64,000 nt of DNA from Eledone cirrhosa. Taxonomy: Eukaryota. A model generated the notes under the pieces. That model saw only the letters and a list, made by a program, of their open reading frames with translations, made no database searches and was not told where the DNA came from. The number at the start of each line of letters is the position of its first letter. The first letter of the stretch is position 1. Where the stretch lies: the NCBI GenBank assembly GCA_964016885.1, contig OZ024741.1, forward strand, positions 46,314,001 through 46,378,000. Direction: 5' to 3'. Below, in pieces: positions 1 through 64,000 of the stretch. Made by a program: the position numbers and the translations under genes.

Positions 1-3000
1 AATTTGCTGGGGTACAGTACCTCTCTCTCCATCCTGATTCTTCTTCCAAAATGATATTTGAAAAAACGAATCAGTTGCTCGCCGGAGAGAAAGGTGTCTG
101 ACCTCAGCCCTTTTAACCTCGTCCACCATATAACCTCTTTCGCCATAGCCATAACACATAGGAAAACCGCCTCTCCCTCGTTTTTGAAGGAGTGTGGCGG
201 TTTGATCATGACAATGGACTCGGTGGTCAACCGGATTGGTCCCACCCGCAACAATAGTCGTTCTACATAGCCCCACAGGTCGGTAACGCCCGGGCAGTGT
301 ACAAATGCGTGTGCGACGGTTTCCTCGTCGCGCACGCATGTCGGACAGATCTTTTTCGAAGGGTCCCTACCCGGGCGCCCGTGCCTGTAGAGCTTGTCTC
401 GAACTGGTAGAGCTCCTCGGTAGCACTGCCAGGCCAGGGACTTTGGAAGTTGTCCATTGGTCCCGGGCGGAAGGTCCTACCGAACAGACTGGCCAGTTCG
501 TCCTCCTCTACGCCTAGAGTTTCTCCGAACGTGTCGTCGCACTTGCTGCGAACCAACCCTCTATGGAATGTCGAAGTGGAGTCTCCACTGATCGCCGGGT
601 CCGTTTGCCAGAGGACTGTGAGCGCCTGAGCACATTCGATATGCCAGTCGCCCTTTTTCCTCGGTCTTTGCTTGACCCAGGTCTGCAGCTCGGTCAGTGA
701 GACGAGTCGTGGGAAGGCTCGCCTCACGAACGGGGCCCACACCGGTTGTCTGGTGAGGAATACGTGGAGGAGCCGCAGCCTGAGCGCGTGTTTGCGCATC
801 GTCAGCCACGGCATCCCCAGCCCTCCGTTTGAAGGGTGTTGGCAGCAGATGGATCTTCTCACCAAAGGAGCCCGTTTCTTCCAAAGAGCGTTTTGGCTCA
901 CAACGGTCAAGCGGTAGTAGATGACGGACACTATAAAAGTGTTCGCCACCTCCGCTCGACCTTTCAAGGATAGTTTGCACTCGGCCCACTTCTGGGTGAG
1001 CGCAAACACCTTGGCCGTCACCTCGTTCCAGTTCTTCTCCACCTGGAGGTCAGGACCAAACCAGACCCCGAGCAGCTTTACCGGTCCTTCCGTCCAGCGT
1101 CCGACGACGTCGTCGGAAGGCATCGGTTTGCCTCTCCACGTTCCGAGTTGCAAACCGACGGATTTGTCCCGGTTCAGCTTCGCTCCTATGAACCTCTCGT
1201 ATTCCTCCAGTAAGGTGCCGATCTCCCCAATTTGCGCGGTGCTCGACACCATCACTGGTACGTCGTCGGCGTAGGCCGACGCCGCTTTTCGCAATCCCGG
1301 TTCCAAATGGATGCCCTGCAATAGTTCCAACTTCCGCAGTAGTGGCTCGAGAGTCAGTACGTACAGAAGGGAGGAGAGAGGGCATCCCTGTCGGATGGAT
1401 TCGCGTGATATGGAACGGCTCCGAGAGGTAGCCGTTCACCTTGACCCTTGAGCAGATGTTGCTGTTGTGTATTGCAGCAATCCAGCTCCTGAACACGGGA
1501 CCGAATCCTGCCGCCTCGAGCACCGCATCCAGGTAACGATGGTTAACCCTATCGAAAGCCTTAGACTGATCCAAGTTGATCAGGGCCCCACCGAAGCCGG
1601 ATTTACAGCCTACCCTCTCTATGATGTATCGCATGAGGTGGAGGTTGTCGTGTATGGACCTGGTTGGGATTGCGCATGTCTGCGCTTCTCCCACCAGGTT
1701 TTCGACGACAAGCACCAGCCTCTTTGCCAACACCTTGGCCAAAATCTGTAACTCTGTGTTGAGCAGAGTTATGAGCCGGAAGTTGCCTATGTCATCCCCC
1801 TTGTTCTCGTCCTTTCTGACTAACGTGATTACGCCCTTGATCACAGAACTGGGAATTCTCCCGTTCTGCTGCCAATTGCAGTAGACCGCTTCCAGGAGAC
1901 CGGAGAACAAGTCCGGCATTGCTACGTAAAATTCGTAGGGTAGACCGTCGAGACCTGGAGTTTTGCGTTTGCCGCATTGGCTCAGCGCGTCCCCTATCTC
2001 AGCGGCCGAAATCGGCCTTTCGCAGAACTTTGCCTCGCTGTCCGAGAGTCGCGGTAGGCCGTCGAGGTATGAACTGAAATCCATAGCCCCTCCCGGCGCG
2101 CCGCCCTGCCCCAACAGTTGAGCAAAGTGCCGCTGAAAGGCCGCGCACATTTGCTTCGGCTCACATATCACGCGTCCGTCTTGGTCCTTCAAAGACCGAA
2201 TCGTGGACTTGTTGCCACTTTTCGCCTCCGTCACTCGGGCCCAGCTAATAGTTTTGGCTCCCTCGTTTCCCAGAGCACGTATTTTGCTTCTGACAACGCA
2301 GCCTTCATGCTTTGCATCGAAGAACTGGTCCAAGGCCGTTCTAGTCGCTAGCACGCTGGCTACGTTTCCACTCCTAATTGCCTCTTCTACTTCATCTACC
2401 TGTTTCTTTTCGGTCTTATTTCTATCTAACACTAATTCTTTACTAAAACCTATCGAGTCTAATCTAACTGCCCCCTTGAGAGAGTACCACCATCTGTTGT
2501 TGACAGTGGCCCCCGTCAAGTGCTGCTTAACTAAAGTGCTAATCCGTCTACGGTAGGATTTGCATGTCGGTAACGACAAGTTCAGTTTCCAGTAGCCGGA
2601 TCCCTGTCTATGGGTTTTGTCAAGGTTGACTAAGCAGGTCACTAATTTGTGATCTGAATAGGCAACCATGAACATTTGTGGACAGCTTAACATGTCCCTA
2701 TCCTTATTTCTAACTAGAACCCTATCTAGGTACGATCTAGATGTTCCGCTAAGATTAGTCCACGTCCACAGTGGCACAGTCGGAAAATCTAGTCGATATC
2801 TATCGGCCAATTCGAATCGCCCGATTAACTGTTTGAGGCTGTCACACACCCCTCTATCGGGATATGCTCCCACATAGGCGCAACGTGCATCTAGGATTCC
2901 ATTCCAGTCCCTCACTAACAGCAGGGAGCGGGACGTTCCCAGAAAAGTTTCTAGACGTTTGAAGAAGTCTGGCCGCGGTGTCCCGGATGGGGTATATGCG

Positions 3001-3329
3001 GCCACCAGCCTGAAGGCTCCACCTTCACTACCGTCAACGTCTAGGACCACCAGTCGACCCTCCGGGTCCAGATGTACCGTCTGTGTTACGTGGTCCAGGT
3101 GTTTCCGCAGCAAAACGGCGACCCCACCCCCACCTCCCGGCTGACCGAGAGATGCGTAGATCTCAAAGTAGTCGAAGATGGGGGCCAGTTGTCGCTCGCT
3201 GTGGATCCTGGACTCGCAAATGGCTACTACATCCATGCTGTGCGACCTGAGGTCGTTTAAGAGTTTGCCCTGTTTCCAGGGCATCCCCAGGCCGCGTACA
3301 TTCACACATCCAACTCTTATATTGGCCAT
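1..3329 (-). pseudogene. Tx1 ORF2 (APE endonuclease + reverse transcriptase), frameshifted, copy A
   Basis: NVRGL, DWN, SYLDR and SDH APE motifs; KTPGLDGLP, LDQSKAFDRV and AYADD RT motifs. Split across ORFs 1050-3329 and 263-1330 by a frameshift near 1395. Confidence 0.9.
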
Positions 3330-3365
3330 GTTGGTGCTGAAAAGTTAACAGAAAAGGAAAAGAAA

Positions 3366-5453
3366 TCACTCACCTCTTCGTCTCCTGGGGACCAGGCTGC
3401 ACAATTTCCATGGGGGTGTTGGAGGGGTTGTTTGGTGGGGTGGTGGTCTCTGGAGGGGTGGGGACAGAGATGTTTGGTGGGGAGGGGTGTCTGGTGGGAT
3501 GGGGGTGGGGGTGGGGAAACATTTTAACAGGACTCGATTGTAGGGTTTGACGCAGGCGTTACCTACGTCGTTAGGAAAATTTTCTTTTAACTGTTTATGC
3601 GTGTAAATGGAGGTCCTAATCATTTTAAGATTAGGATTCTCCGATGAGTTTGTAAAAATTTTCCCTTCGGTCTCCACCGAAGGGTTTTTATATATGGTGT
3701 CTGTTAAAGTTTTATTGTTAGTATTTATGTAGGTGTAACATTTTTGTTGTGTTGGATTGCTTTTTGTCTGTGGTTCTTGTGTGTGTTTACGTTTTGTAGT
3801 AGGTGTTTTGTTTTCAGGAGGGGGTGTTTTTGTTTGTGCTGTTTGCGTCGCTTGTGTTGGTGTTTGTTTGTTTGTTGCATTTTTGTTTGTGTTATGTCTT
3901 TTCTTTTTTCTTTTTACTGGTCGGAAAAGCTCTCCCTCGTCGTCACTGGGTGACGATGATGAGGCCTCATCCGTGTTGTTGGGGAGGGGTACGTTTTGGA
4001 GAGCTGTTATGTGTGTGGGTGTTTTGGGAGTTGTTTTAGGTGGGGAGGGGTTGGGTGGGACTGTGTTTGTCGTTTGTTTTGTTGTCACTATTTTTTTATG
4101 TTGTTGTTGTTGTTGTGGTGGTGGTGGTGGTTGTGATTGTTGTGCTGGTGTTGCAGGTGTTGGCAGTAGTTCCTTTTTTTGGCTAGTTAGCCGAGGACAG
4201 GAAGCTCTCACGTGATCCCTGCTTGAGCAGTGGTAACATGAGGGCCGCCTACCCTCGACCGAAATGTTTATGTTTATAAGCCCATCCAGCAACACACGTT
4301 CCGGCATCCTAGCTATTCGTTCTGATGTCATTTGGACCAGAACTTCCAGGCTAGTTCCGCTGAACAGGTCGCCGGAGGACTTACCTACCGATATTATATA
4401 GTCTGTTTCGTGGTTTAAAAATCCACATAGTACCCACCAAATGTCAATATCTGCTGTGATACTTTGGATTTTTATTTTCTGTGTCCTTTTCCCCATGTAA
4501 GTGGGGAAAAAGGTGAACAGCGGTGACACAATTGGCGACACAGAATATTTATGTGCCGTCAATTGGTCTTTCATTAGAATGGATAAACTCCCGTAGAGTC
4601 TACCCTTCTGAATAAAAGCAATGTCTTTTAAGGCATTTTTTAAAGCCAACTCAATTTCGCCTTGTGAAAGTTGAGTCGGTTTTCGTGTTTTGTTTGAGAT
4701 TGTCCTGAAAATCACAGTTTTCAAGGCAGCTTCTCTTCGCAAATCTGGGGGAGAGTTTATGAAGAATGATCCGTTCTCCCCAAAAGTTACATATTGTCTG
4801 GCGTTATTCAAAAGCTCATTTGCATTTGAAATATCTACCAGAGTGTAGCTTACCGTTTTCTTTACGGTTTGCGCAAATGATATTTTGTCGTTTACTTCCT
4901 TGTTACAGTTATTGGCCTTGTTGTTGTTATTATTATTCTTATTGTTGATGTTGTTTTCGTTTTTTCCGTTGTTGGTGTTGTTGTTGGTTGTGGTTTTGTT
5001 GTCGTTGTTGTTGTTGTTGTTCTTCTTCTTCTTCTTCTTGTCACTCTTGTTGTTGATGGCGTTGTTTTGGTTTGTGCCATTCACAGTTTTCGTGTTGGTG
5101 GTGCTGGTGTTGTTGTCAGGGTGTGTTTTAAACATATCGAAGTGTTTCAATGAGGCGGTGAGAGCTGCTTCTTGGCTTGACAGTTTTACCGTCCCTCCAC
5201 CACTTCTGTCTAATTGTTGGCTGACAGATTTGATGTTGTTGTTGTTTTTGTTGCTGTTGTTGTTACTGTTGTTGTTGGTGGTGGTGATAGCAGCAGGCAG
5301 GCAGCCTTCACCTGCTACTAGTGTTGTGGAAGGTGATATTAACAGCCCATCTCCACAATTCTCTGATGTGTTTTTTGTGAAGATGAGATCAAAGAATTTG
5401 GCCATTTTGGCTATATTCAAAATTCCGGTAGAAATTTTGTGGAATTTCTCCAT
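3366..5453 (-). CDS. Tx1 ORF1 (gag-like protein with zinc knuckle), copy A
   Basis: 695 aa open frame with CYHCSSRDHVRASC (CX2CX4HX4C) and Asn/Thr/Pro low-complexity arms. Homologous to the broken ORF1 of copy B. Confidence 0.85.
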   Translation of the reverse strand: MEKFHKISTGILNIAKMAKFFDLIFTKNTSENCGDGLLISPSTTLVAGEGCLPAAITTTNNNSNNNSNKNNNNIKSVSQQLDRSGGGTVKLSSQEAALTASLKHFDMFKTHPDNNTSTTNTKTVNGTNQNNAINNKSDKKKKKKNNNNNNDNKTTTNNNTNNGKNENNINNKNNNNNNKANNCNKEVNDKISFAQTVKKTVSYTLVDISNANELLNNARQYVTFGENGSFFINSPPDLRREAALKTVIFRTISNKTRKPTQLSQGEIELALKNALKDIAFIQKGRLYGSLSILMKDQLTAHKYSVSPIVSPLFTFFPTYMGKRTQKIKIQSITADIDIWWVLCGFLNHETDYIISVGKSSGDLFSGTSLEVLVQMTSERIARMPERVLLDGLININISVEGRRPSCYHCSSRDHVRASCPRLTSQKKELLPTPATPAQQSQPPPPPQQQQQHKKIVTTKQTTNTVPPNPSPPKTTPKTPTHITALQNVPLPNNTDEASSSSPSDDEGELFRPVKRKKKRHNTNKNATNKQTPTQATQTAQTKTPPPENKTPTTKRKHTQEPQTKSNPTQQKCYTYINTNNKTLTDTIYKNPSVETEGKIFTNSSENPNLKMIRTSIYTHKQLKENFPNDVGNACVKPYNRVLLKCFPTPTPIPPDTPPHQTSLSPPLQRPPPHQTTPPTPPWKLCSLVPRRRRGE

Positions 5454-5619
5454 TTTTCGCCCTGATGGGGTTATTATTTGGGGTTGCTACCACCTACAAA
5501 GTGTAGGGTGGCAGCTTATCTACAAAATGGTGTAAGAATGTAGATTCAGTTCATGCAATTTCCAATGAAATTAAAACATTTACTCACCAGCGCGTTTTCC
5601 ACGTGTTAGACAGAATCCG

Positions 5620-5640
5620 AGATAGTAGACAGATAGATAA

Positions 5641-5711
<71 letters not shown>
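5620..5711 (+). repeat. (GATA)n microsatellite between the two Tx1 copies
   Basis: Direct read. It forms the (TATC)n 3' tail of copy B and the 5' flank of copy A. Confidence 0.95.
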
Positions 5712-5712
<1 letters not shown>

Positions 5713-8700
5713 GTTTCTATTTATTTGCGACGAGGGCACAAAAGAAGGGGACAAACACAAGGGGGGGGGGGGGTACATAAAGGAACGAGTAAAAAACAAA
5801 TAACAAATATGAAATTAAAAATACAGTCCTCAATAAGGAGGAGGCGTTTTGGGGGTTACACACACCCCCGAAAAAGTGTGCAACACTTTTTCTTAGGAGT
5901 ACAGACAGGGGTGCTCCTTTGCAATTCCACCTTTCCACCTACAGGCTGATAAAGAGAGAAGGCCCATTCACACGGGCCATTCTCGCCACTTTCACCCACC
6001 TTTCATAAAACTTGCTAGGGTAGAGCACCTCTCTCTCCATTCTGATCCTTCTCTTAAAATGGTATTTAAAGAAAAGGACCAGTTGTTGGCCGGAGAGAAA
6101 GGTATCCGACCTCAGCCCTTTCAAACGTGTCCACCATACCACCTCTTTCACCATGGCTATTACACAGAGGAAGACCGCCTCTCCTTCATTTTTGAAGGGG
6201 GGGGAGGCGGCTTGATCGTTACAATGGACTCAGTGAGCAACCGGATTGGTCCCACCCGTGACAGCAATCGTTCGACATAGCCCCACAGATCGGCAACGCC
6301 CGAGCAGTGTACCAATGCGGTTTCCTCGTCGCGCACGCATCTGGGACAGATTTTTTTCGAGGGGTCCCTACTCGGGCGCCCGTGTCTGTAGAGCTTTTCT
6401 CGAACGGGTAGCGCCCCTCGGTAACACTGCCAGGCCAGGGATCTCTGGAAGTTGTACATAAGTCTCGGGCCAAATGTCCTCCCGAATAGGCTGGCCAGTT
6501 TGTCTTCCTCCATGCCTAGGGCTTGTCCGAGGGCTCGTCGCACCTACTAACCAGCAACCCTTTATAGAATGACGAGGTGGAGTCTCCACCGATCGCCGTG
6601 TCCGCCTGCCAGAGAGCCGTGAGCACCTGGGGACACTCGGTGTGCCAGCCGCCCAGTTTTCTCGGTCTTTGCTTGACCCAGGACTGCAGCTCGGTGAGGA
6701 ATACCTGGAGGTGCCGTAGCCTTAATGCATGATTACGCATCAGCAGCCACGGCATCCCAGCCCTCCTTTCGAAGGGTGTTGACAGCAGATGGATCTCCTC
6801 ACCAAAGGAGCCCGCTTCTTCCAAAGGAATTGGATGATTGGAAGAGTGTGCGCTCCATTTTGGCGAGCGTTTCCCTTGGGCAAGGAACGACGGTCAGGCG
6901 ATAATAGATGACGGACGCTATATAAGCGTTCGCCCCCTCCGCCCGACCTTTCAGGGATAGTTTGCACTCAGCCCACTTCTGCGTCAGCGCAAACACCCTG
7001 TTCGATACCTCACCCCAGTTCTTCTCCACCTGGAGGTCTGGCCCGAACCAGACCCCGAGCAGCTTCACCGGACCCTCCGTCCAACGTCCGACGACTCCGT
7101 TGGAGGCCATCGGTTTGCCCCTCCACTCGCCGAGTTGCAAACCGACTGACTTGTCCCGGTTCAGCTTAGCCCTGTAAACGTTTCATATTCCTCCAGTAAG
7201 GTGCCGATGACCCCGATATCCGAGGCGCTTGACACCATTACTGTCACGTCATCGGCGTAGGCCGACACCGCTTTCCACAATCCCGGTTCCAAAGGATGCC
7301 CTGTAACAACTCCAACTTCCGCAGCAGTGGCTCTAGGGCCAATACATACAGAAGGGAGGAGAGAGGGCATCCCTGTCGGATGGGCCGCGTGATTTCGAAC
7401 GGCTCCGAGAGGTAGCCGTTCACCTTGACCCTAGAGCAGATTCGGCTGCTGTGCATGGCAGTGATCCAGCCCCTGAAAACGGGTCCGAAACCTGCCGCTA
7501 CTAGCACCGCATCCAGGTAACGATGGTCGACCCTATCGAACGCCTTAGATTGATCCAAGTTGATCAGGGCCCCACCAAAGCCGGGTTCATTACCAACCCT
7601 CTTTATGATGTATCGCATGAGATGGAGGTTGTCGTGAATTGACCTGGACGGGATGGCGCATGTCTGCGCATCTCCCACCAGGTTGCCCACAACAAGCGCC
7701 AACCTCTTTGCTAACACCTTGGCCAAAATCTTTAATTCTGCATTTAGCAGTGTTATGGGCCTAAAATTACTTATTTCATCCCCCTTGTTCTCGTCCTTCC
7801 TCACTAGCGAGACTAGGCTCTTGGTCACAGAACAGGGAATTCTCCCGTTCTGTTGTCAGTTGCAATAGACCGCTTCGAGGAGATCGAAGAACAAGTCCGG
7901 CATACTTAAATACAGTTCGTATGGAAGACCATCGAGGCCCGGAGATTTGCGTCTGCCGCATTGGCTCAGCACGTCCCCTATCTCAGCAGCTGAGATTGGC
8001 CTCTCGCAGGACTTCGCCTCCTCGTCCGAAAGACGCGGCAGGCCGTTGAGGTATGGACCGAGGTCCACATCTCCATCCGGCCCCTCATCCCTTCCGAACA
8101 ATCGGGCAAAGTGCCTTTGAAAGGCCTCGCACATCTGCTTAGGTTCAAGGATCACCCGTCCATCCTGGTCTCGCAAAGACCGGATAGTGGATCTAATCCC
8201 ACTTTTGGCTTCTGTCACGCGGGCCCAGCTAACAGCTTTGGTCACCTCGTTTCCCAGAGCACGTATTTTGCTTCGGACAACGCAGCCTTCGTGTTTCGCG
8301 TCGAAGAACTGGCTACGTCGCCGCTTCTAATTGCCTCTTCTACACTATCTACCAACTCCCTTTCCTTCCTATTTCTATCTGAGGCTAACTCCTTACTAAC
8401 TCCTATTGAAGCTACTCTAATCTCTCTTTTGAGAGAGCCCCACCACCTGCTGTTGACGATGGCACCCGTCAACCGCTCCTTAACTAAAGTACTAATCAGG
8501 TTCCTGTAAGCTTTACTTGCCGGTAAGGACAAGTTGAGCTTCCAGTAACCGGGTCCCTGTCTATGCGTTCTATCAAGGTTGACCATGGAGGTCACTAACT
8601 TATGGTTTGAATAGCCAGGCATGAGCATTTTTTGACAACTTAAAAAGTTCCTATCCTTATTTCTAACTAAGAACCTATCTAGGTACGATCTAGATTGACC

Positions 8701-11394
8701 GCTGTGGTTTCTCCAAGTCCAGGTTGGCACAGTTGGAAAACCTAGTCGATATATATCGGCCAGGTCGAATCGGCCGATTAACCCCTTGAGGCTGTTACAA
8801 CCCTCTCTATCAGGACATGCCCCTACATAGTCCCAACGTGCATCTAGGATACCATTCCAGTCCCCCACTAAAAGCAAGAAGCCGGACGTCCCTAGAAAAG
8901 TCTCCAGACGATGGAAGAAGTCCGGCCGCGTTGACCCAAAAGGGCCGTAGACGGCGACCAGCCTAAAAGCTCCGCCTTCACTATTGCCAAGGTCCAGAAC
9001 CACTAGTCGACCCTCCGGCTCCAAGTGTACCGTCTGTGTAGCGAGACCCAGATGTTTTTTGCAGCAGAACGACAACCCCACCCCCACCTCTGTGCTGATA
9101 GAGAGATGCGTCAATCTCAAAGTCATCAAAGGTGGGGGCCAGCTGTCGCACGCTGCTGATCCGGGCCTCGCAAATAACCATCACATTTATACATCGAGAC
9201 CTGAGGTCATTTAGAAGCATTGCTTGCTTCCAAGGTGAGTCCAGGCCACGCGCATTTAGACAACATATTCTCAACACAGCCATGTTGGTTGTAAAGAGAA
9301 AAGGCACTTACCTCTCTGCGTCCCGAGGACCGGGCCGCACAATTTCCATGGGGGTGGGGAGGTTGTGAAAGTCTAGGGGCATCAGTGTGTGTTGGGGTTG
9401 GGGTGTTTTGAGTTGTGTGGGTGTCTGGGGGGAGATTTTTTAGGAGGACACGGTTAATGGGTCTGACGCAGGGGGGCCCCACGTCCTCTTTAAAAGTGTC
9501 TTTTAACGTTTTGTAAATGTCCATTGGGGCTTTTATCATTTTTAGATGGGGAAGCCCCGTTGCTTGTGCGAAATTCGAACCTTCGGTTTTTATTAAGTTG
9601 TTATTATAATAACGTTTAACAGTTTTTTGTTTATTGTATTTATGTAAGTGTTGGCATATTTTTCTTTTTGAGTGATGTTTTTTGTTTGCTGTTGTGTGTT
9701 TTTTTTTTTGTTGACGTCTGTGTTGTGTATTGGAGAGGGGTTGTTTGTATTTGTGTTCCTGTGGTGTGTTTTCTTTTTTTTTCTTTTAACTTTATGAAAG
9801 TGTTCCTCCCCCCTCGTCTGACGACGAAAGGGGGTCGTCTTCCGTATTCGAGGGGAGGGGTTCATTTTCGGCCCGTGTTTGTGGTGTGGGTGTTATTGTA
9901 TTTGTTTTCTGTGTGGGGGGGATGGGGGGATTGTTTTCAGTTGTGTTTTAACTTGTGGTGTTAGTTGTTTTTGCGGTGGTGGTGGAGGTTGTGTTGGTAG
10001 TGTTGTAGTTATTGGTGTGGGCAAAATCGGTGTTTTTTTTTGTTTGCTTGGGACCAGGCAGCCCTCAGGTGACCTCTGCCACCACAGAGGTAACAAGCGG
10101 GTCGTCTACCCTCCACTATGATGTGGAAGTAGGCAAGCCCATCCAGCAATATGCGGTCGGGGATCCTAGCAATTCGTTCTAGCTGCATTTGCACCAGAAC
10201 TTGCAGGCTAGTTCCACCGAACACGTTGCTGGAAGACTTACCTACCGAAATTACTGCATCCTCTTTCAAGTCGAAGAGGCCACACAGTACCGCCCAGAAA
10301 TCAATATTTGGATCGATACTGTGTATGGTCAATCTTTGTGTTCTTCTTCCCAAATAAGTGGGGAAGAAGGTAAATAAGGGGGACACAATTGGGGCCAGGG
10401 AATGTTTTTCGGCCGTCAATTTATCTTTCATTCGGATGGATAGACACCCGTAGAGTCTATCTTTCCGAATGAATACAATGTTTTTCAGATGATCTTTTAA
10501 AGTCAGTTCAATCTCTGTCTGTGTCAGTTCTACTGGCTTACGGGTTTTGTTTGATATTGTCCTATAAATAATAGTTTTTAAGCTATTTTCCTTTTTTAGC
10601 TCTGGGGGAGAATTTAAAGAAAATAGACCATTCTCCTCCAAAGTTATATACTTCCGTGCATTTTCCATTTTCTGGGCCATATTTGAAATGTCAATAGGTT
10701 CATACACAGTGGTTTTTTTGGTAGTTTGCGCGAACGTCATTTTGTTCGCCCCCTCTTTGTTTAGATTTGTCGAAATGAGGTTGTTTTCTTGTTTTTTGTT
10801 GTTACAATTATCATTTTTTGTTGTGTTTGTGTTATTTATGTTGGTGTATGCTTTCACATTTTTTTTCCCGTTGGGGGTTAGACTCTATTTCTTCAAAAAG
10901 TTCACTTATATTTTCAGTATCCGAGAGACTTGTAGTCACAGCTACTACTTCTCTTTCACCTTTTCTGGTGGGCGTGCACCGTGAAAAGTCGAAACGGCAT
11001 CCATTAATTTTGGCAATTTCTCCGAGTCAATTTTTTTCACATTTTTTTCATTAGGGTTAGGCTCCATGTTTTCAATGTTTCTAATAATCATTATTCTTTC
11101 AGTAGGGAGGCTTGTTGCCCCCGCTACCCGCTCTCCTTCAGTTTGTTTAGTGGGCGTGTCATCGTTACCTGTGGTAATGGCTTCCATTACCACTAGCGTA
11201 GAGACAATCACAAAATTTTTAGGATGAAAAATTTCACCCTATAAAGGGTAAAATAAATTAACCCTAATGTCCGAAGACCCAGGCAAGGGGGTTAATTAAC
11301 ACAATAACGCAAGAGTACAGACAAACACTTACTGTTAACACGTAATATATTCAATAATCGAGGTGCCGATGTGAAGAACGTCTATACCATCCGG
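5712..11394 (-). mobile_element. Tx1/L1-clade non-LTR retrotransposon, copy B, full length but degenerate, diverged subfamily
   Basis: Fragmented ORF1 (~9308-11211) and ORF2 (5939-9283) homologous to copy A. AATAAA on the minus strand at 5720-5725, then a (TATC)n tail. 5' end abuts GATA/GATG repeats at 11395-11448. Confidence 0.92.
5939..9283 (-). pseudogene. Tx1 ORF2 of copy B, multiple frameshifts and stops
   Basis: Fragments 8981-9307, 8242-9129, 7856-8245, 7244-7828 (RQGCPLS), 7161-7370 (AYADD), 6799-7140, 6160-6543 (CPRC..HC) and 5939-6154. Confidence 0.9.
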
Positions 11395-12080
11395 AGATAG
11401 ATAGATAAATGGATGGATGAATGGATGGATGGGTAGATAGATAGATAGTTTCTAATTCATGTCTCAGTACAACACATACATTTTTTTTTTCATTTCCAAT
11501 AATTATACTATTGATTAATCAAACAGTTTAAGACTAGTGATCCAAGTTCGCAATTCAGTTTCGATTTCCGATCAATACCAATCCATTTCAATTAAGACGT
11601 TTATGCCACTGATAAAAGCATAAAGATTATAGGATTTCGTCACTTCCTCTCATATACTGACGACCTCATGTCTAATTAATAAATCGATATGTTAACATTC
11701 TTTGTGAACGAATTTCTTATATTGCATGTATCGGAATTCTTTTATAACACTGCATTAACTTCAACATGGAAATTCCACCATCATGCACACCTACATGCAT
11801 ATTTAGTTTCCTGTAACTTTGAAAGAAATAACAGAGTTAGGCATTGTAACTCTAAAATGCATGCATATACATATGCATATATATGCATATACATGTATAT
11901 ACATGCATATACATGTATATACGTGTGCATATACAGCATATACGTGCATATATATGCATATACATGCATATACTTGTGCATATACATGTACGTAAATATT
12001 TGTTTAGAAGGCAGCGGCGCATGTTGTATATTCTTAAACTTAACAGCCCTATGCTCTGGTTATATAAACATTGTAGATCA

Positions 12081-17876: not shown

Positions 17877-20158
17877 TCTTCTGGTTTTATAATTTCACGA
17901 AGTTTTACCAATAGAGAGAGATTCGGTTTCTAATATAGACACAAGTCTCTCTCATTGGAATTTACAAAACATCAACTAGGTAGATATGTATGCATGCATG
18001 TGTAGATATGGGTGTTATTGTATGTGTGTATGTGTATGTTTTGAGTTGTATGTGTGAATGTCTATATGCTTTGTATCTGTACATGTGTATATGCAGTTAT
18101 TAGATGCAAAATCTTTGGAATGTTTTACATATTTTTACTGTTCCATTAATGGATTGTACTAGTTGTGTTCTTTCTGATCCTTTGAAGTCTAGCTTCTCAA
18201 GATTTGTATTGAAGCAGTTACTAACATATCCCAGTGCCCCAATAATCACAGGCATAAATCTGAAGGTGTGATCAGGGTGGAGTGTCTGCAGATTTCTCAT
18301 CAGTTCTGCATAAATATTCTCCTTTTCACTAATCTTTGATATTATATTGGCATCTGCTGCGCAGCTAATTTCTACTACTGTGGATGCTTTCTTCTCCCTG
18401 TCCCATATCATAATATCTGGTCTGTTATGCCTGCATTTTATTGGGGTTTTTACTGGAACATTCCACCAGTACTCTTTCATATTATGTACATGGATGTCTT
18501 CCACATTGCTGTAGCTTTTAATGTGTTTATTATCGGGGCTATCTTTTTTACGAACTGCATTGTACAGTCTTTTGGCCACTACATCATGCCTCATAGATAG
18601 ATAGTACCGCGATGACATCTTTGGACAGCTGCTGATGACATGGGTGATATCCTCGATGTTAGTTCTGCAGAGTCTGCACTTGTTATCACATCTAGGTGTT
18701 TTGCCTGCGTCCCTATCTCTTTTGTGAATCAGGTATTATGCGCTAATCTCCTGTTCTTGGATTGCAAAAGCGTAGCCTTCAAAGTGGGAGCCAATATAGC
18801 GGTTGTTGGTCCAAGATAGACTAGTTTCCTTAGCTATATTACTCTCACTCTGGAGCTTCCTGGCAACATATCCATGCATGATTTTTTGGTGATAGACATG
18901 CAGTTTTTCATCCATGGATTCACTGCGATACTGCTGAGCGACATCCCTGGATGTGAGTTTTTGATTATCACACAAGGAATATCTCTCAAGGAGTTCCTTG
19001 CCAACTCTCATGATCTTATCTGTTTCATGCAGATAGACTTGCTCGAGAAGCGGGCTCCTACGCTTCGAGGTTCGTAGATGTTGTCGGAGAGATATGATGC
19101 GACATTCAAATGTTGTCTGGACTGATGTTAGACCTCTGCCTCCCTGCTTACGTCTCAAGTAAAGGCGGTCTATGTCACTGTTGTTGTGGAAGTTTCCGGT
19201 GTTGTTCAGTATTTTCCGAGTTCCAACATCAACTGCTCGGATTTCGTCTATCGTCCAATTGAGTATTCCAAACGTTGGTGTTAGGACAGGCACAGCAAAC
19301 ACATTGTGAGCCACTGTTTTGTTTTGCGCAGAGAGTTCTGATGACCAGATCTTTCTTAATCGGGTGTAGTATTCCCTGGTTACGCGTTCTTTATTACAGA
19401 TACCGTTATAGGATATGTTCTCATCTATCACCAGGTATCTGTAGCAGTCCTCATCAGATATCGGTGAAACAGTTAGACCATTGATGACAATGTTGCTAGA
19501 TTGGGTTGTTGTTTTTCCCCGCTTTACAGTCATGTATGAGCATTTATCTTGGCCAAACTCCATTCCTATATCCTTTGAGAACGTTGTAACCAGGTCAAGA
19601 TTTTTCTTCATCCCATCCATGTTGTTGGCATAGAGTTTCAGATCGTCCACAAAGAAGTTATGGGTTAGGTTCGTATTTCTGTCCTCCTGTGAGCCAATGA
19701 TGTATCCCTCACATTTTTTTAGCAGAAAAGACAAGGGGTTTAATGACAATATGAACAATATCACAGAGAGACTGTCCTCCTGAAATATACCCCTGCAATA
19801 TTTTATTTTATCAGTGAAAATAGAGTCCTCCCTCTCTGTTTTAACCTTAGGATAGTAGTCCAAGAAGAAGACGGCTTCTCTATGGCTCTGACAATAATGT
19901 CTGGGACTTTAGCAAGTTGGAGGGCCTCTATCACCCAAGAGTGGGGAACAGAATCGAAAGCCTTCTTGTAGTCCAGACAGACTGTAGTCATATTCCTCCT
20001 AAGTTGTCGCACCTACGACATCGCAGTTTTGTTGATTAAGAGTTGATCAGCACATCCCCAAACCTCTTTCTTTCCAGCTGCTTGTTCATCTGTGATGATG
20101 TTATTATTTTCACAGTGATCTTGGAGGAATAGGTTCAGGCAGGCTGTATGCTTCTTAT
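17877..20158 (-). pseudogene. R4/Dong-like RLE non-LTR retrotransposon, 3' part (inverted copy)
   Basis: FFVDDLKLY, CRLC..H..C, RHD, NRPDI and VEISC motifs. Reverse complement of about 21172-23473. Confidence 0.9.
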
Positions 20159-20427: not shown

Positions 20428-23400
20428 GAACACCACCAAAAATACCATCATAGATAACTAAAATAGAAAAAAAGAATGCTGACCTACGAAAAGACATAGG
20501 ACATGTGACAATGCTCCTTACATGCAAACAAACACAAAAAAACCTCACTCCTCACCAACAAAGAGTGAAAAATGAAATAGAGACGATGTTTGGTAACAGT
20601 AGAACCAGAACTCTCCAATATAAGCTGATCACCCTCAAACAAGAATTGAGAGCTGTTAGGGAAAAACGTCGATACCTGAAGAAGGTAGATGAGAGAAAAA
20701 TGCTTAATAAACGATTCAGACGAAACCAAACATCAATCTATAGAGATATGAAGGGCAAAATAATAAGTGTCACTGAGGCCCCATCCCAGAAAGACATAGA
20801 TTCCTTTTGGAGAAAAATATGGGGTGAAAAGAAGAATTTCAACCAAGATGCAGTGTGGCTAAGAGAAATCCGAAAGAACTATTGCTCCTACACTACAACA
20901 AAAACATACGAAATAAGTGAGGGTACTCTTGAGACTGTGATAGGAAAACTCAAGATAAAAAAACACCAGGAAGAGACATGATTGTCGGCTACTGGTACAA
21001 AAAAACTGATATTCTATCGGAGGTATCTTACTGACCTCTACCAACAAGTTCTTAAGGGAGATACACTTATACCAGAATGGTTGACATTAGCACAAACGTT
21101 ACTGGTCTCCAAGAACAAAGACACCCACTTGGCAAAAGACTACCGACCCATTGCATGCCAGAACCTGATGTATAAGATGTATACAGCCTGCCTGAACCTA
21201 TTCCTCCAAGATCACTGTGAAAATAATAACATCATCACAGATGAACAAGCAGCTGGAAAGAAAAGGGTTTGGGGATGTGCTGAACAACTCCTGATCAACA
21301 AAACTGCGATGTCGAAGGTGCGACAACTTAGGAGGAATATGACTACAGTCTGGCTGGACTACAAGAAAGCTTTCGATTCTGTTCCCCACTCTTGGGTGAT
21401 AGAGGCCCTCCAACTTGCTAAAGTACCAGACATTATTGTCAGAACCATAGAGAGGCTGTCTTCTTCTTGGGCTACTATCCTAAGGTTAATGACAGAGAGG
21501 GAGGACTCTATTTTCACTGATAAAATAAAATATTGCAGGGGTATATTTCAGGGGGACAGTCTCTCTGTGATATTGTTCATATTGTCATTAAACCCCTTGT
21601 CTTTTCTGCTAAAAAAATGTGAGGGATACATCATTGGCTCACAGGAGCACAGAAATACGAACCTAACCCATAACTTCTTTGTGAACGATCTGAAACTCTA
21701 TGCCAACAACATGGATGGGATGAAGAAAAATCTTGACCTGGTTACAACGTTCTCAAAGGATATAGGAATGGAGTTTGGCCAAGATAAATGCTCATACATG
21801 ACTGTAAAGCGGGGAAAAACAACAACCCAATCTAGCAACATTGTCATCAATGGTCTAACTGTTTCACCGATATCTGATGAGGACTGCTACAGATACCTGG
21901 TGATAGATGAGAACATATCCTATAATGGTATCTGTAATAAAGAACGCGTAACCAGGGAATATTACACCCGATTAAGAAAGATCTGGTCATCAGAACTCTC
22001 TGCGCAAAACAAAACAGTGGCTCACAATGTGTTTGCTGTGCCTATCCAAACACCAACGTTTGGAATACTCAATTGGACGATAGACGAAATTCGAGCAGTT
22101 GATGTTGGAACTCGAAAAATACTGAACAACACCGGAAACTTCCACAACAACAGTGACATAGACCGCCTTTACTTGAAACGTAAGCAGGGAGGCAGAGGCC
22201 TAACATCAGTCCAGACAACATTTGAATGTCGCATCATATCTCTCCGACAACATCTACGAACCTCGAAGCGTAGGAGCCCGCTTCTCGAGCAAGTCTATCT
22301 GCATGAAACAGATAAGATCATGAGAGTTGGGAAGGAACTCCTTGGGAGATATTCCCTGTGTGATAATCAAAAACTCACATCCAGGGATGTCGCTCAGCAG
22401 TATCGCAGTGAATCCATGGATGAAAAACTGCATGCCTATCAGCAAAAAATCATGCATGGATATGTTGCCAGGAAGCTCCAGAGTGAGAGTAATATAGATA
22501 AGGAAAGTAGTCTATCTTGGACCAACAACCGCTATATTGGCTCCCACTTTGAAGGATACGCTTTTGCAATCCAAGAACAGGAGATTAGCACGAAATACCT
22601 GATTCAAAAAAGAGATAGGGATGCAGGCAAAACACCTAGATGTGATAACAAGTGCAGACTCCTCAGAACTAACATCGAGGATATCACCCATGTCATCAGC
22701 AGCTCTCCAAAGATGTCATCGCGGTACTATCTACCTATGAGGCATGATGTAGTGGCCAAAACACTGTACAAGGCAGTTCGTAAAAATGATAGCCCCGATA
22801 ATAAACACATTAAAAGCTACAACAATGTGGAAGACATCTATGTACATAATATGAAAGAGTACTGGTGGAATGTTCCAGTAAAAACCCCAATAAAATGCAG
22901 GCATAACAGACCAGATATTATGATATGGGACAGGGAGAAAAAAACATACACAGTAGTGGAAATTAGCTGCCCAGAAGATGCCAATATAATATCAAAGATT
23001 AGTGAAAAGGAGAATATTCATGCAGAACTGATGAGAAATCTGCAGATACCCCACCCTGATTACACCTTCAGATTTATGTCTGTGATTATTGGGGCACTGG
23101 GGTGTGTTAGTAACTGCCTCAATACAAATCTTGAGAAGCTAGGCTTCACAGGAACAGAAATAACACAACTAGTTAGGAAACTACAAGTACAATCCATTAA
23201 TGGAACAGTAAAAATATGTAAAACATTCCAAAAATTTTGCATCTAATAACTGCATATACACATGTACAGATACAAAGCATATACACATGCACACATACAA
23301 CTCAAAATATACACATCCACACATACAATAACATCCATATCTACACATGCATGCATACATACATATCTACCTAGTTGATGTTGTGTAGATTCCAATGAGA

Positions 23401-31917: not shown

Positions 31918-32204
31918 CGAGCAAGTTATTCCATCGATTGAGCAACTGGAACATTCATCGTTAAAAAAAGTTGCTCTACTAGGAACATTTGATATCCTGC
32001 TCAAGATATCGATTCAATCATACGATTCAGACAGTAAAATCTCCACAGTCTTTACAATAAGCATGAAATAGAATAACACAACTTATAGAACATCAACTCT
32101 ACAAGATTAATACCTAATAAAATAACATAACATATACCCCTACTCAAGACCAATAACTCTTACAATCAATATTCTAGGCAGCTGCCACAAATTGATGCTA
32201 CATC

Positions 32205-35200
32205 ACACACCACACAACACGGAACCATACACAACACACCACACAACAAACATCACACACCACAGAACCTTACACCACACACCATACATTCCACGTCACA
32301 CACCACACACCACACATCCATCACACCACACACCACACACCACAAACCACACATCACACCACACACCACACACCACACACCACACACCACACACAAACAT
32401 CACACCACACACCACACACCACACACCACACACCACACACCACACATCACACCACACACCACACACCACACACCACACATCACACACCAGACATCACACA
32501 TCACACACCACACACCACACACCACACACCACACACCACACATCACACACCAGACATCACACATCACACACCACACACCACACACCACACACCACACATC
32601 ACACCACACACCACACCACATCACACACCAAATATCACACTACACACCACACACCACACCACACACCACACACCACACACCACACATCACACACAACACC
32701 ACACACCACACACCAGACATCACACATCACACACCACACACCACACACCACACACCACACATCACACCACACACCACACATCACACCACACACCACACCA
32801 CACACCACACACCAGACATCACACATCACACACCACACACCACACCACACACCACACACCACACACCACACCACACACCACACCACACACCACACACCAC
32901 ACACCACACCACACACCACACACCACATACCATAGTACACACCACACACCACACCACACTCACACCACACACCACACCACACCACACCACACCACACACC
33001 ACACACCACACACCACACACCACACACCACACCACACACCACACACCACACACCACACCACACTCACACCACAGAACTTTACACCACACACCACACAACA
33101 CACACCACACACCACACCACACACCACACACCACACACCACACTCACACCACACAACACACACCACACACCACACACCACACACCACACATCACACCACA
33201 CTCCACACACCACACACCACACACCACACACCACACACAAACATCACACCACACACCACACATCACACCACACACCACACACCACACATCACACACCACA
33301 CACCACACACCACATCACATCACACACCAAATATCACACTACACACCACACACCACACCACACTCCACACACCACACACCACACATTACACACCACACAT
33401 CACACACCACACACCACACACCAGACATCACACATCACACACCACACACCACACACCACACACCACACCACACACCACACATCACACCACACACCACACC
33501 ACACACCACACACCATACATCACACCACACACCACACATCACACCACACACCACACCACACACCACACACCAGACATCACACATCACACACCACACACCA
33601 CACCACACACCACATACCACACCACACACCACACACCACACACCACACCACACACCACACCACACACCACACACCACACACCACACCACATACCACACAC
33701 CACACCACACACCACACACCACACACCACACACCATAGCACACACCACACACCACACACCACACCACACTCACACCACACACCACACCACACCACACCAC
33801 ACACCACACACCACACCACACACCACACACCACACCACACACCACACACCACACCACACTCACACCACACACCACACCACACCACACCACACACCACACA
33901 CCACACCACACACCACACACCACACCACACACCACACACCACACACCACACCACACACCACACACCACACAACACACCACACACCACACACCATAGCACA
34001 CACCACACACCACACACCACACCACACTCACACCACACACCACACCACACCACACCACACCACACACCACACACCACACACCACACACCACACACCACAC
34101 CACAAACCACACACCACACCACACACCACACACCATACACCACACACCACACCACACCACACCACACACCACACACCACACACCACACACCACACCACAC
34201 CACACCACACACCACACACCACACACCACACACCACACACCACACCACACACCACACGCCACACCACACACCACACACCACACACCACACCACACTCACA
34301 CCACAGAACCTTACACCACACACCACACACCACACACCACACACCACACCACACACCACACACCACACACCACACTCACACCACACACCACACACCACAC
34401 ACCACACACCACACCACACACCACACCACACACCACACACCACACACCACACTCACACCACACACCACACACCACACACCACACACCACACACCACACAC
34501 CACACACCACACCACACACCACACGCCACACCACACACCACACACCACACCACACTCACACCACAGAACCTTACACCACACACCACACACCACACACCAC
34601 ACACCACACACCACACCACACACCACACACCACACACCACACCACACACCACACACCACACACCACACACCACACGCCACACCACACACCACACACCACA
34701 CCACATCACACCACACCACACACCACACACCACACCACACACCACACACCACACACCACACATCACACACCACACCACACACCACACACCAGACACCACA
34801 CACCACACACCACACACCACACCACACCACACCACACCACACACCACACACCACACACCACACACCACACACCACACCACACACCACACCACACCACACC
34901 ACACCACACCACACACCACACACCACACACCACACCACACACCACACCACACCACACCACACACCACACACCACACACCACACACCACACACCACACACC
35001 ACACCACACACCACACGAGACATCACACATCACATACCACACACCACACCACACCACACCACACACCACACACCACACTCACACCACACAACACACACCA
35101 CACACCACACACCACACACCACACATCACACCACACTCCACACACCACACACCACACACCACACACCACACACCACACACCACACATCACACACCAGACA

Positions 35201-37247
35201 TCACACCACACTCCACACACCACACACCACACACCACACACCACACACCACACCACACACCACACACCACACATCACACCACACTCCACACACCACACAC
35301 CACACACCACACACCACACATCACACCACACACCACACACCACACAGCACACACCACACTCACACCACACTCCACACACCACACACCACACACCACACAC
35401 CACACTCCACACACCACACTCACACCACACACCACACACCACACACCACACACCACACATCACACCACACACCACACACCACACACCACACCACACACCA
35501 CACACCACACAGCACACACCACACTCACACCACACTCCACACACCACACACCACACACCACACACCACACATCACACACCAGACATCACACACCACACAC
35601 CACACACCACACACCACACATCACACACCAGACATCACACCACACTCCACACACCACACACCACACACCACACACCACACACCACACCACACACCACACA
35701 CCACACACCACACACCACACACCACACCACACTCCACACACCACACACCACACACCACACACCACACACCACACCACACACCACACATCACACCACACTC
35801 CACACACCACACACCACACACCACACACCACACATCACACACCAGACATCACACCACACTCCACACACCACACACCACACACCACACACCACACACCACA
35901 CATCACACACCAGACATCACACCACACACCACACACCACACATCCATCACACCACACACCACGCACCACACACCACACATCACACCACACACCACACCAC
36001 ACCACACACCACACACCAGACATCACACCACGCACCACACACCACACATCACACCACACACCACACCACACCACACACCACACATCACACACCAGACATC
36101 ACACCACACTCCACACACCACACACCACACACCACACATCACACACCACACCACACACCACACACCACACACCACACCACACCACACTCACACCACACCA
36201 CACACCACACACCACACACCACACACCACACATCACACCACACACCACACCACACACCACACCCCACACACCACACTCACACCACACACCACACACCACA
36301 CACCACACACCACACACCACACACCACACCACACTCCACACACCACACACCACACACCACACACCACACACCACACCACACACCACACACCACACATCAC
36401 ACCACACTCCACACACCACACACCACACACCACACACCACACATCACACACCAGACATCACACCACACTCCACACACCACACACCACACACCACACACCA
36501 CACACCACACATCCATCACACCACACACCACGCACCACACACCACACATCACACCACACACCACACCACATCACACACCAAACATCACACTACACACCAC
36601 ACACCACACCACACACCACACACCACACACCACACATCACACACCACACCACACACCACACACCAGACACCACACACCACACACCACACATCACACCACA
36701 CACCACACATCACACCACACACCACACCACACACCACACCACACACCACACACCAGACATTACACATCACACACCACACACCACACCACACACCACATAC
36801 CACACCACACACCACACACCACACACCACACCACACACCACACCACACACCACACACCACACACCACACACCACACCACACTCACACCACAGAACCTTAC
36901 ACCACACACCAAACACCACACACCACACCACACACCACACCACACACCACATACCACACCACACACCACACACCACACACCACACATCACACCACACACC
37001 ACACATCACACCACACACCACATACCACACCACACACCACACACCACACACCACACCACACACCACACCACACACCACACACCACACACCACACACCACA
37101 CCACACTCACACCACAGAACCTTACACCACACACCACACACCACACACCACACCACACACCACACCACACACCACATACCACACCACACACCACACACCA
37201 CACACCACACATCACACCACACACCACACATCACACCACACAACACA
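32205..37247 (+). repeat. 5 kb strand-asymmetric (CACCA/CACCACA)n complex satellite
   Basis: Mix of 5-mers and 7-mers with recurrent marker variants (cacagaaccttacacc, ccagacatc, cactccac). Confidence 0.95.
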
Positions 37248-37249
37248 AC

Positions 37250-37789
37250 CTAGAAAACCCTATACGATAACTCCATGTCCACACGGGAAATCTACTCGGT
37301 ACCTATAAGACAGTTGGAATTGTTTGATCAGGCTTTTGAGGCTTTTGCAACCCACTCACCGTGCCTTTATCGACTACTCACACACAGTCACAGCGTGCGT
37401 CTAAAATACAGTTCTGGTTCCCAGTTAAATGTAACTAACGAGACGTTCCAAGAAAGGCTTTCAGATTCCGGGCGAAATCTGACTGTCCAAACCCATTCGG
37501 GGCATAGTCGGCAACAAATCTAAAAACAACACCTTCGTTATTGCTCACATCCAGAAACACCAACTTTCCGTCTGTAACTCGAGATTCAGGCCTCCCATCC
37601 CAGGCCAATTAAGAGATCCGTAGATCTCAAAGTCGTCAAAAATCGGGGCTAGTGCGTATCACATATCAGGATCACGTTGACGCTGTCACATCTACCGTAA
37701 ATGATCTGAGGTTGTTGAGAAAGCGACCTTGCTTCCAGGACTACCCAAACCACGTACATTTATGCTAATCCACTCTTAAATTTGCCATG
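37250..37789 (-). pseudogene. Old Tx1 ORF2 N-terminal (APE) remnant
   Basis: Aligns by eye with 2716-3329, for example gatctgaggttgttg..ccacgtacatt..tttgccatg. Confidence 0.7.
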
Positions 37790-38355
37790 CTAACCGGGAA
37801 GAGTTAAGAGACCGAAGCGGTGGGCTAATGCCTCCGCTACACTAGTTGGTGTTCCTTTCGGAACTCCTATAAAAGCCTACTGCTCAGTGCCGGATTTACC
37901 ATTGTGCTAAGGTGTGCTTAAGCACAGGGCCCCGTTGGCTAGTGGGAGGGGGACATCTTTCTTCCCCAAAAAATATTTTACTTTCTTCAGTTGTAGTTGT
38001 AGTTATGGCAGTGTTGGTGGTGCTGATGGTAATATCGGTGGTTGTGTTGACGGTTGTGGTGTTGGTGGGGTTGGTGTTGTAGATGTGCCAGTATTTATTA
38101 TGGATAAGTTTCGATCGGGTTGCAGCGACCACATATATAAAATCACCAAACCAACAAGTGACACGATGAACAAGAAGTCATTAAGCTATTCAATGCCTCT
38201 GAAATGCAGCATAATAGGAAATAAAATAGAGTTTAAAAAATAAAAGCCTTTTATTCACGTATATATATATATGTGCGTGTGTGTGCGTGTGTATATACAA
38301 ATATATTTATATCTATATCTATATCTATATCTATCTCTCTCTCTCTATATATATA

Positions 38356-60362: not shown

Positions 60363-60513
60363 ATACTTTGGGAGGGCCATGTTGCCAATAAGAAACACAC
60401 GCACCAGTTGCTTTCACTTCAATTTAATTTAATATATATTTATAAATTTACAAATTTATAAATTTCTGGTTGGTTGGTTGGTTCCACAACCAGATAGTTG
60501 TTTATATATATAT

Positions 60514-60558
60514 AGTCATAGTTCTTTCGTCACACACTCTGTGACCTCTTCAGTGACT
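60514..60558 (-). ncRNA. Type I hammerhead ribozyme in the Naiad 3' region
   Basis: agtca CTGAAGA ggtcacagagtgtgtgac GAAA gaac TA tgact. Confidence 0.8.
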
Positions 60559-60854
60559 GGGGATTTCTTTCTTCGTTTCTGTGCCTTTCCTTTCTTCTAT
60601 CCTACGCCATTTTGTTTGTGTGTGGGTTGCGTGCTCAGTTTGCGCATGCGCCACATCCGGGTGTCTGTGTGTGTTTGTGTTCATTTTTCTATTTTTCTAT
60701 TTATATTTGTTTGTTTATTTATTTATTTATTGTTGGTTGGTTGTTTGTTCTATGTGTGTGTGTGTTTTCATTTTGTCTTGTGTGTGTTTTCATTTTGTGT
60801 GTGTTTTCAATTGTAAGTTGTTTATATATGTGTGTGTGTGTTTTCATTTTGTCC

Positions 60855-63800: not shown

Positions 63801-64000
63801 TGTGTTATCGTTGTTGTGTGTGTTGTTATTGTTGTTTGTGTTTGCGTGTCTGTTGTTGTTGTATCTGGGTATGTTGCTGTTGTTGTTGTTGTTGATGTGT
63901 GTGTTGTTGTTATTGTTGTCTCCGTGTGTGTTGTTATTGTTGTTTGTGTCTGCGTGTCTGTTGTATCTGGGTATGTTGCTATTGTTGTTATTGTATCTGG
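60855..64000 (-). CDS. PLE polyprotein (N-rich repeats, RT, Cys linker, GIY-YIG) with one in-frame TGA at 61236-61238
   Basis: TDKSGR, KDHK..GPPTRPVCGA, SMDVVSLYPSI, RYVDD and SGY motifs. After the TGA the same frame continues IDKKCITC..CKTRNVVY..VYIGET..R..EH to TAA at 60855. The frame is also stop-free from 63554 to 64000. Confidence 0.8.

Follow-up and report, generated by a model that had tools for sequence, protein, structure and literature searches.

Octopod LINEs carry conserved splice-donor motifs close to their 5' end and at the stop of ORF1, and in a sister family with a reverse transcriptase (RT) only ~50% identical, a further donor follows the ORF2 stop. The two copies that define the pattern, A and B, lie in the window, i.e. 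the whole 64,000-nt stretch of Eledone cirrhosa DNA analysed here (contig OZ024741.1, positions 46,314,001–46,378,000). Most of the donors are followed by U-rich tracts, a hairpin module in front of ORF1 is conserved, and the donor-containing segments are retained in the genomic copies examined. An earlier, sequence-only reading of this DNA noted the leader donors; the wider pattern at the ORF1 and ORF2 stops was absent from it. The most plausible explanation, to which we give tentative credence somewhat short of an even chance, is that these donors bind U1, that the genomic RNA stays unspliced while a minority of the RNA is spliced to leader-trimmed and ORF1-only mRNAs, and that spliced copies die out.

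The LINE copies and a sister family

The elements and their surroundings in the window are as follows.

1..5630, minus strand: LINE copy A (L1/Tx1 type), 3' end beyond the window edge; APE and RT Pfam matches
3366..5453, minus strand: ORF1 of A (CCHC, RRM-like), last conserved motif out of frame in this copy
5620..5711, minus strand: (ATCT)n array between the B 3' end and the A 5' end
5713..11395, minus strand: LINE copy B, full length, frameshifted; preceded by an ATCT-like array at 11395–11448
37250..37830, minus strand: fragment C, a third relative (tblastx and sequence), with a pyrimidine tract and a TAG 1 nt before the ORF2 ATG (37788)

Copies A and B are arranged head-to-tail within the first 11.4 kb of the window, each directly preceded by an ATCT array (2/2), and share 74.5% nucleotide identity across the coding part. 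ORF2 combines an N-terminal APE with an RT (PF03372, E 1e-8; PF00078, E 3e-12), and the top match of A ORF2 is an Argonauta hians protein (63%). The separate ORF1, with a CCHC knuckle and RRM, gives a weak PF00098 match in B (E 0.085), and its look-alikes in the atlas match zf-CCHC at 0.91; its homologs come from Octopus and Argonauta (106 matches, mostly partial), and other genomic contigs show indels in A ORF1 at 3483 and 3487. By this architecture, A and B appear to be L1/Tx1-type LINEs, the tree holding no named Tx1 reference; the Tx1 label for A, B and the sister family is our assumption. No relatives were detected among the viral contigs searched, and a word search with ORF1 gave no match. 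The metagenome yielded 46 distant L1-like loci (~25%); an upstream GTRAGT was present in 9 of the 25 examined, in none of them within 100 nt of ORF2, and the 5' ends of these loci are undefined.

Elsewhere in the window, two near-identical RT ORFs in inverted orientation (18100–19908, minus strand; 20454–23246, plus strand) have a C-terminal restriction-like nuclease motif and presumably belong to R4/Dong-type LINEs. A satellite of the (TGTGG) type, 5 kb long and extremely skewed between the strands (32100–37250), adjoins fragment C.

The sister family, which groups with A and B at 99/97 support in the tree, comes from animal contigs with tandem arrays inside a prokaryote assembly, G001. These contigs (C3–C15 and C17–C19; L047–L088 and L101–L135) amount to ~0.6 Mb and are contamination of that assembly; most of this sequence is made up of head-to-tail arrays in which 10 or more LINE copies may follow one another, their ORFs open and the types mixed within arrays. 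The sample comprises 54 full leaders of 13 types from one host, and because the related copies of an array are not independent, the units of comparison are the 13 types rather than copy counts. Sister copies, including the truncated ones, follow the 3' end of a neighbour, and the truncated copies begin ~20 nt past the neighbour's AATAAA, which suggests insertion into the family's own 3' end.

Leader donors, the 94-nt segments and the hairpin module

The following features of the two leaders were delineated, the hairpins by fold prediction.

5582..5590, minus strand: leader donor of A (D1), CTG/GTGAGT, ~45 nt from the element 5' end; counterpart in 51/54 sister leaders
5494..5587, minus strand: 94-nt GT-AG segment of A, a candidate retained intron; second AG at 5521–5520
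11239..11332, minus strand: 94-nt GT-AG segment of B, donor ACA/GTAAGT; second AG at 11265–11264
5486..5545, minus strand: two-hairpin module of A, with a TCTAC/GTAGA helix at 5545–5518, a CCACCCTAC/GTAGGTGG hairpin at 5515–5486 and an AG in each 3' arm
11232..11297, minus strand: two predicted hairpins of B, at 11297–11257 and 11255–11232

The two GT-AG segments are exactly 94 nt each, as the sequence-only reading had it (A, 5587–5494, GTGAGT..TTTGTAG; B, 11332–11239, GTAAGT..TTTATAG). By crude in-house scores, the leader donor of A ties for the best U1 match among 262 sense GTs and that of B ties for sixth among 301, and the AG at +94 ranks first of 61 pyrimidine-tract acceptors in B and fourth of 86 in A. 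In shuffled sequences of the first 130 nt, GTRAGT turns up with a chance of 0.05–0.06 per element. The segments contain a donor consensus, a pyrimidine tract and a YAG, together with hairpin pairing and a rival AG at +68/+69 that, in A, outscores the one at +94. Inspection by eye for a branch point 18–40 nt before the AG finds TTAAT 19 nt upstream in B and no clear YTRAY for the +94 AG of A. Homology of the two 94-mers was considered and ruled out: 22 of the 86 interior positions are identical, which is the chance level (P 0.76).

A leader donor recurs in the other full-length subfamilies checked, i.e. in 51 of the 54 sister leaders, across four leader classes that cannot be aligned with one another. 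It lies ~40–50 nt from the 5' end in type 1 (36 copies) and ~90–115 nt in type 2 (15 copies, 6 types), and is absent from type 3 (3 copies), a lineage that lacks D2, the donor at the ORF1 stop, as well. In type 2, the donor sits inside a 14-bp helix in five of the six types and is followed by a U-rich gap of variable length (175–197 nt) and a strong acceptor (6/6 types), so that this leader looks like a masked intron. The commonest form of the type-1 leader (18 copies) has no YAG at all between the donor and ORF1. With such variable spacing, the donor is general but the 94-nt distance is not, and its status as a family constant has to be given up; the length is probably incidental, and the +94 AG would be one among several possible leader acceptors.

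Additional candidate signals lie close by. B has a strong donor, CAG/GTAACG, 70 nt past the +94 AG and a short way downstream of the ORF1 ATG (11168, minus strand), and A has a weaker one, CAG/GTGAAG (5311, minus strand). Both leader AGs of B fall within TAGGGT (11265–11260 and 11241–11236, minus strand), a putative site for hnRNP A1, a splicing silencer.

The segments persist in genomic copies. A contig at depth 244, a value that does not measure copy number, covers 5444–5584 of A with 2 differences, the donor lying just outside; leader cover is also found among genomic contigs of a second species; and the segment is retained in 15/15 sister type-2 leaders. A contig of the X5 set, of unrecorded kind, spans the +94 AG of A. 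No spliced genomic copy was found among the 54 sister leaders, and the intron side is kept at 65/65 ORF1 ends, 52/52 3'-exon starts and 17/17 type-2 exon starts. This sample is too small to exclude the rate of ~2% spliced copies given for human L1 in the available text of PMC5860796. Four contig runs, none of them recorded as RNA, were compared over 3200–5645 of the window; the absence of a joint at 5493/5588 or 3336/5588 among 15 of 215 joints listed, and of a variant at the GT or AG positions among 40 of 837 variant sites listed, is not evidence either way. The proposal of an intron-retaining LINE survives in part: the donor and the hairpin are conserved and the segment is kept in genomic copies, whereas the 94-nt length and the acceptor before ORF2 (see below) are not conserved.

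The claim that the acceptor AG is buried in the 3' arm of a hairpin agrees with the predicted folds of both copies. The acceptor hairpin of A has 13 bp (z -4.8; 0/200 shuffles as good, in a stretch chosen around the hairpin); in B, the hairpin is present but longer than the 5 bp noted earlier, with 10 bp, and the two-hairpin stretch, again chosen around the hairpins, has z -3.2. The motif of the A hairpin, in a pattern written after seeing both families, has a single match in the window and is present in 13 of the 15 sister type-2 leaders, and its distance to the ORF1 ATG is 36 nt in A versus 44–47 nt in sister type 2. The TCTAC/GTAGA helix, too, is common to A and the sister leaders, with an AG of its own 24–26 nt upstream. 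Judged by these sequence comparisons, the hairpin module is real and old. Its AG is another matter: it is kept in five of the six type-2 leader types (in two as CAG, breaking pairs) and lost in one, and given the position of the module as well, the +94 AG may be a structural part rather than an acceptor. The strong type-2 acceptor lies upstream of the module, so that splicing there would leave it intact; in A, use of the AG at +68 or +94 would break it up. A small hairpin with its end at the ORF1 ATG is present in both sister leader types (L055:4020–4050 and L047:5880–5902), and two of its pairs change on both sides among the type-1 leaders.

These structures also bear on the possibility that the sites are look-alikes, i.e. 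a DNA promoter element at the 5' end and structured UTRs in which the pyrimidine and purine arms of hairpins mimic acceptors. A precedent for such a promoter element is human L1, the donor of which persists for the sake of a RUNX3 site according to the available text of PMC5860796. Sister type-1 leaders conserve AAAAGTAA, the upstream part of which does not match the donor consensus, and stems are kept where the AG is lost, in one of the six type-2 leaders and in the type-1 start hairpin (TAG/TGG). Mimicry nevertheless leaves unexplained the donors beside both stops and their A/G interchange at +3, and in two of the six type-2 leaders, the change from TAG to CAG preserves the YAG and breaks the pairs. 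We regard the look-alike explanation as unlikely.

Donors at the ORF stops and the spacer before ORF2

Four features at or after the ends of the ORFs complete the pattern in A and B.

3368..3376, minus strand: donor D2 of A, GAG/GTGAGT, overlapping the stop of the conserved ORF1 end; GT at 3373; kept in the X1 variant
9306..9314, minus strand: donor D2 of B, GAG/GTAAGT, overlapping the ORF1 stop; GT at 9311; no AG before the ORF2 ATG (9283)
3330..3373, minus strand: pyrimidine-rich ORF1/ORF2 spacer of A, with an AG (3338–3337) 7 nt before the ORF2 ATG; best acceptor of 86 in A
5939..5965, minus strand: acceptor-like site of B, with an AG (5947–5946) 5 nt before the ORF2 stop; second-best of 61 in B; candidate partner of D2

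Of 68 sister copies, 65 have a donor 1 nt past the ORF1 stop, and a further donor follows or overlaps the ORF2 stop in 65 of 65; GTAAGT and GTGAGT interchange at +3, as the donor consensus allows. A pyrimidine-tract YAG follows the ORF2 donor at 236–263 nt in 57 of 61 sister 3' regions; three of the four exceptions are type 3 and one is unmatched. The 3' region being 84% identical overall, conservation of this acceptor says little on its own. That region (L055:3036–3750) spans ~700 nt, is conserved at this level across 11 types, contains two AATAAA signals and includes a candidate 250-nt intron with invariant blocks inside.

Among 11 representative sister elements, three have just two sense GTRAGT motifs in 6.8 kb, those at the two stops, and ten have none inside ORF2. 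Purging of donors from ORF2 is not evident from synonymous shuffles of two elements (12 GTRAG versus 14.5 expected). In B, no strong donor follows ORF2; joining its D2 to the AG at 5946 is predicted to end ORF1 in frame at the ORF2 stop, and the C-terminus of P0003 does not clearly show this acceptor. By the rule for nonsense-mediated decay, RNAs spliced from donors that coincide with a stop or lie no more than 50 nt from it would be expected to escape degradation. A third GTAAGT shared by A and B (4384/10241) was rejected as a donor: it lacks a U-rich tract, and the V-G-K-S that it encodes accounts for its presence.

The full-length ORF1 homologs P0055 and P0061 share ~30% identity with A. 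Their last residues, G-K-S and G-K, are those expected if a GGTAAG donor lay at the end of ORF1, a correspondence seen at the protein level only. In the last 80 nt of ORF1 (window 3364–3445), contig depth is far above that of the rest of ORF1 (X1, X4), which suggests a conserved element just before the ORF1 stop.

The region between the ORFs is less uniform. An AG precedes the ORF2 ATG in A, in fragment C and in the X4 variant represented by 5 contigs; it is absent from B and from the X4 variants represented by 25 contigs and by 1 contig. The sister spacer measures 13 nt, is filled by the donor and contains no pyrimidine-tract AG. The stop and start overlap as TAATG in sister type 3, and the other types show a TGATG in the ORF1 frame, a layout like that of the stop-restart translation of SART1, as described in the accessible part of PMC5972666.

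This heterogeneity weighs on the three-way switch of the sequence-only reading, in which the leader donor would join the masked +94 acceptor to give ORF1, skip to the acceptor before ORF2 or stay unspliced. The best acceptor of A does lie 7 nt before the ORF2 ATG, the AG recurs in fragment C and in the 5-contig variant, and human L1 makes such an RNA, SpORF2, according to the available text of PMC2896524. Without an AG between D2 and ORF2 in B and in two X4 variants, or a pyrimidine-tract AG in the sister spacer, skipping to ORF2 is not a shared design, and no 5587–3337 joint is among the 15 of 215 joints listed; the switch as a whole seems improbable. Still harder to credit is a micro-intron from D2 to the AG before ORF2 that would delete the ORF1 stop and yield an ORF1–ORF2 fusion. 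In A, this join keeps the frame, and the AG precedes the ATG by 7 nt in A, 4 nt in the X4 variant and 1 nt in C, distances that share a phase (~1 in 27 by chance, post hoc). Against this highly improbable reading, neither B nor two X4 variants have the AG, no D2 was detected in C or the X4 variant, the sister spacer is just 13 nt, and the intron would be 37 nt in A, probably below the usual minimum size. The literature searched gave no figure for the minimal intron size of octopus.

A different possibility is that the donors bind U1 and are hardly ever used for splicing, serving instead to suppress premature polyadenylation in the A-rich ORF1 and, in arrays, at the poly(A) signal of the upstream neighbour. 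The commonest sister leader, with a donor and no YAG acceptor, fits this notion, as do the lack of spliced copies in the sister family, the AATAAA inside ORF1 of both A and B, and the location of the leader donor past the neighbour's AATAAA (56–70 or 105–135 nt in the sister family, 138 nt in the window). U1 has such a role in plant Copia elements, in the account given by the available text of PMC5580714. Conversely, ORF2 has no AATAAA or ATTAAA in the three sequences tested, so that D2 has little to protect, and strong acceptors are kept in the sister type-2 leaders and 3' regions. Protection by U1 as the sole function of the donors is, in our estimate, rather unlikely.

Proposed expression scheme and known systems

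Under the favoured explanation, the donors near the 5' end and at the ORF1 stop (in the sister family, also after the ORF2 stop) would bind U1 snRNP, and the hairpins and masking helices would hold splicing down, so that the RNA copied into the genome stays unspliced. A minority of the RNA would be spliced, yielding leader-trimmed mRNA and, by joining of the ORF1-stop donor to an acceptor at the start of the 3' region, ORF1-only mRNA; ORF2 would be made by stop-restart reinitiation on unspliced RNA. Spliced copies would die out if the removed segments hold promoter or 3' recognition elements.

A LINE has to make ORF1 protein in large excess over ORF2 protein from a single RNA, and splice sites within such elements are usually taken as accidents that lower activity. 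Should the scheme hold, with donors kept at ORF borders at ~50% RT identity, selection would be using the spliceosome or U1 within the element's own expression plan, as in plant Copia. A more far-reaching version is possible, although we consider it doubtful: a cephalopod LINE clade with retrovirus-like splicing, in which retained introns in both UTRs would be masked by structure, the ORF1-stop donor would give ORF1-only mRNA, unspliced RNA would serve for ORF2 and copying, and the leader donor would block the poly(A) signal of the upstream neighbour in head-to-tail arrays.

Human L1 is the closest precedent for the leader. As far as the available text of the reports goes, its 5'UTR donor has been kept for ~46 million years and has several acceptors, including one past ORF1, and ~2% of the copies are spliced (PMC5860796, PMC2896524). 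The L1 SpIREs and SpORF2 share with the octopod LINEs a two-ORF APE-RT architecture, a conserved donor near the 5' end and several downstream acceptors, and in L1, the genomic RNA is mostly unspliced, with structure proposed as the mask, as suggested here for the octopod elements (PMC5860796). The sites in L1 have been treated as incidental, with ~2% spliced copies, whereas none were found in the sister family (PMC5860796). Unlike L1, the octopod LINEs also have donors at the ORF1 and ORF2 stops across lineages ~50% alike in RT, and unlike in SpORF2, the acceptor before ORF2 is not conserved.

For the ORF1 end, the parallel is the short GAG RNA of plant Ty1/Copia elements, in which, judging from the accessible part of PMC5580714, a conserved donor gives a Gag-only RNA and, via U1, guards the full-length RNA. 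Both systems have a conserved donor where the structural ORF ends and an acceptor further downstream, and in Copia, as proposed here, U1 splices or guards the full-length RNA and the short RNA would supply an excess of structural protein (PMC5580714). Copia, however, is an LTR retrotransposon whose single ORF encodes a polyprotein, with a short intron and premature termination (PMC5580714), whereas the octopod LINE is a non-LTR element in which the predicted splice would remove all of ORF2 and keep the element's own 3' end. By analogy, the octopod LINEs resemble L1 in their leader and perhaps Copia at the end of ORF1, without belonging to either system. The L1 5'UTR donor with splicing to ORF2 and the Gag-only RNA of Copia being already known, the arrangement considered here is, on this comparison, a variant.

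Among the Tx1-clade elements, Kibi and Koshi resemble the octopod LINEs in the APE-RT ORF2 with a C-terminal zinc finger, the CCHC ORF1 and, apparently, the choice of target, next to a microsatellite or within the 3' end of their own kind, as far as the available text of PMC4494074 goes. For Octopus vulgaris, 80 ‘L1-Tx1' families are given in the accessible part of PMC13282606. Splice sites in retroelements turned up for human L1, Copia and TART alone in the literature available to the search; no report was found that describes splice signals for Tx1 or octopus LINEs, the search extending neither to subscription papers nor to Repbase notes, and the available text of PMC9115989 makes no mention of splicing, introns or Tx1.

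Penelope-like elements retain introns, their splice signals being kept through retrotransposition. The statement that they are the only retroelements to keep splice sites is too strong, given that the 5'UTR donor of human L1 splices to acceptors in the 5'UTR, in ORF1 and past ORF1, according to the available text of PMC5860796 and PMC2896524. The A and B LINEs differ from the Penelope-like elements in having an APE and no GIY-YIG endonuclease. At the far end of the window (60500–64000, minus strand), a 920-codon RT ORF is followed by a GIY-YIG-like frame, a combination that presumably represents a Penelope-like element.
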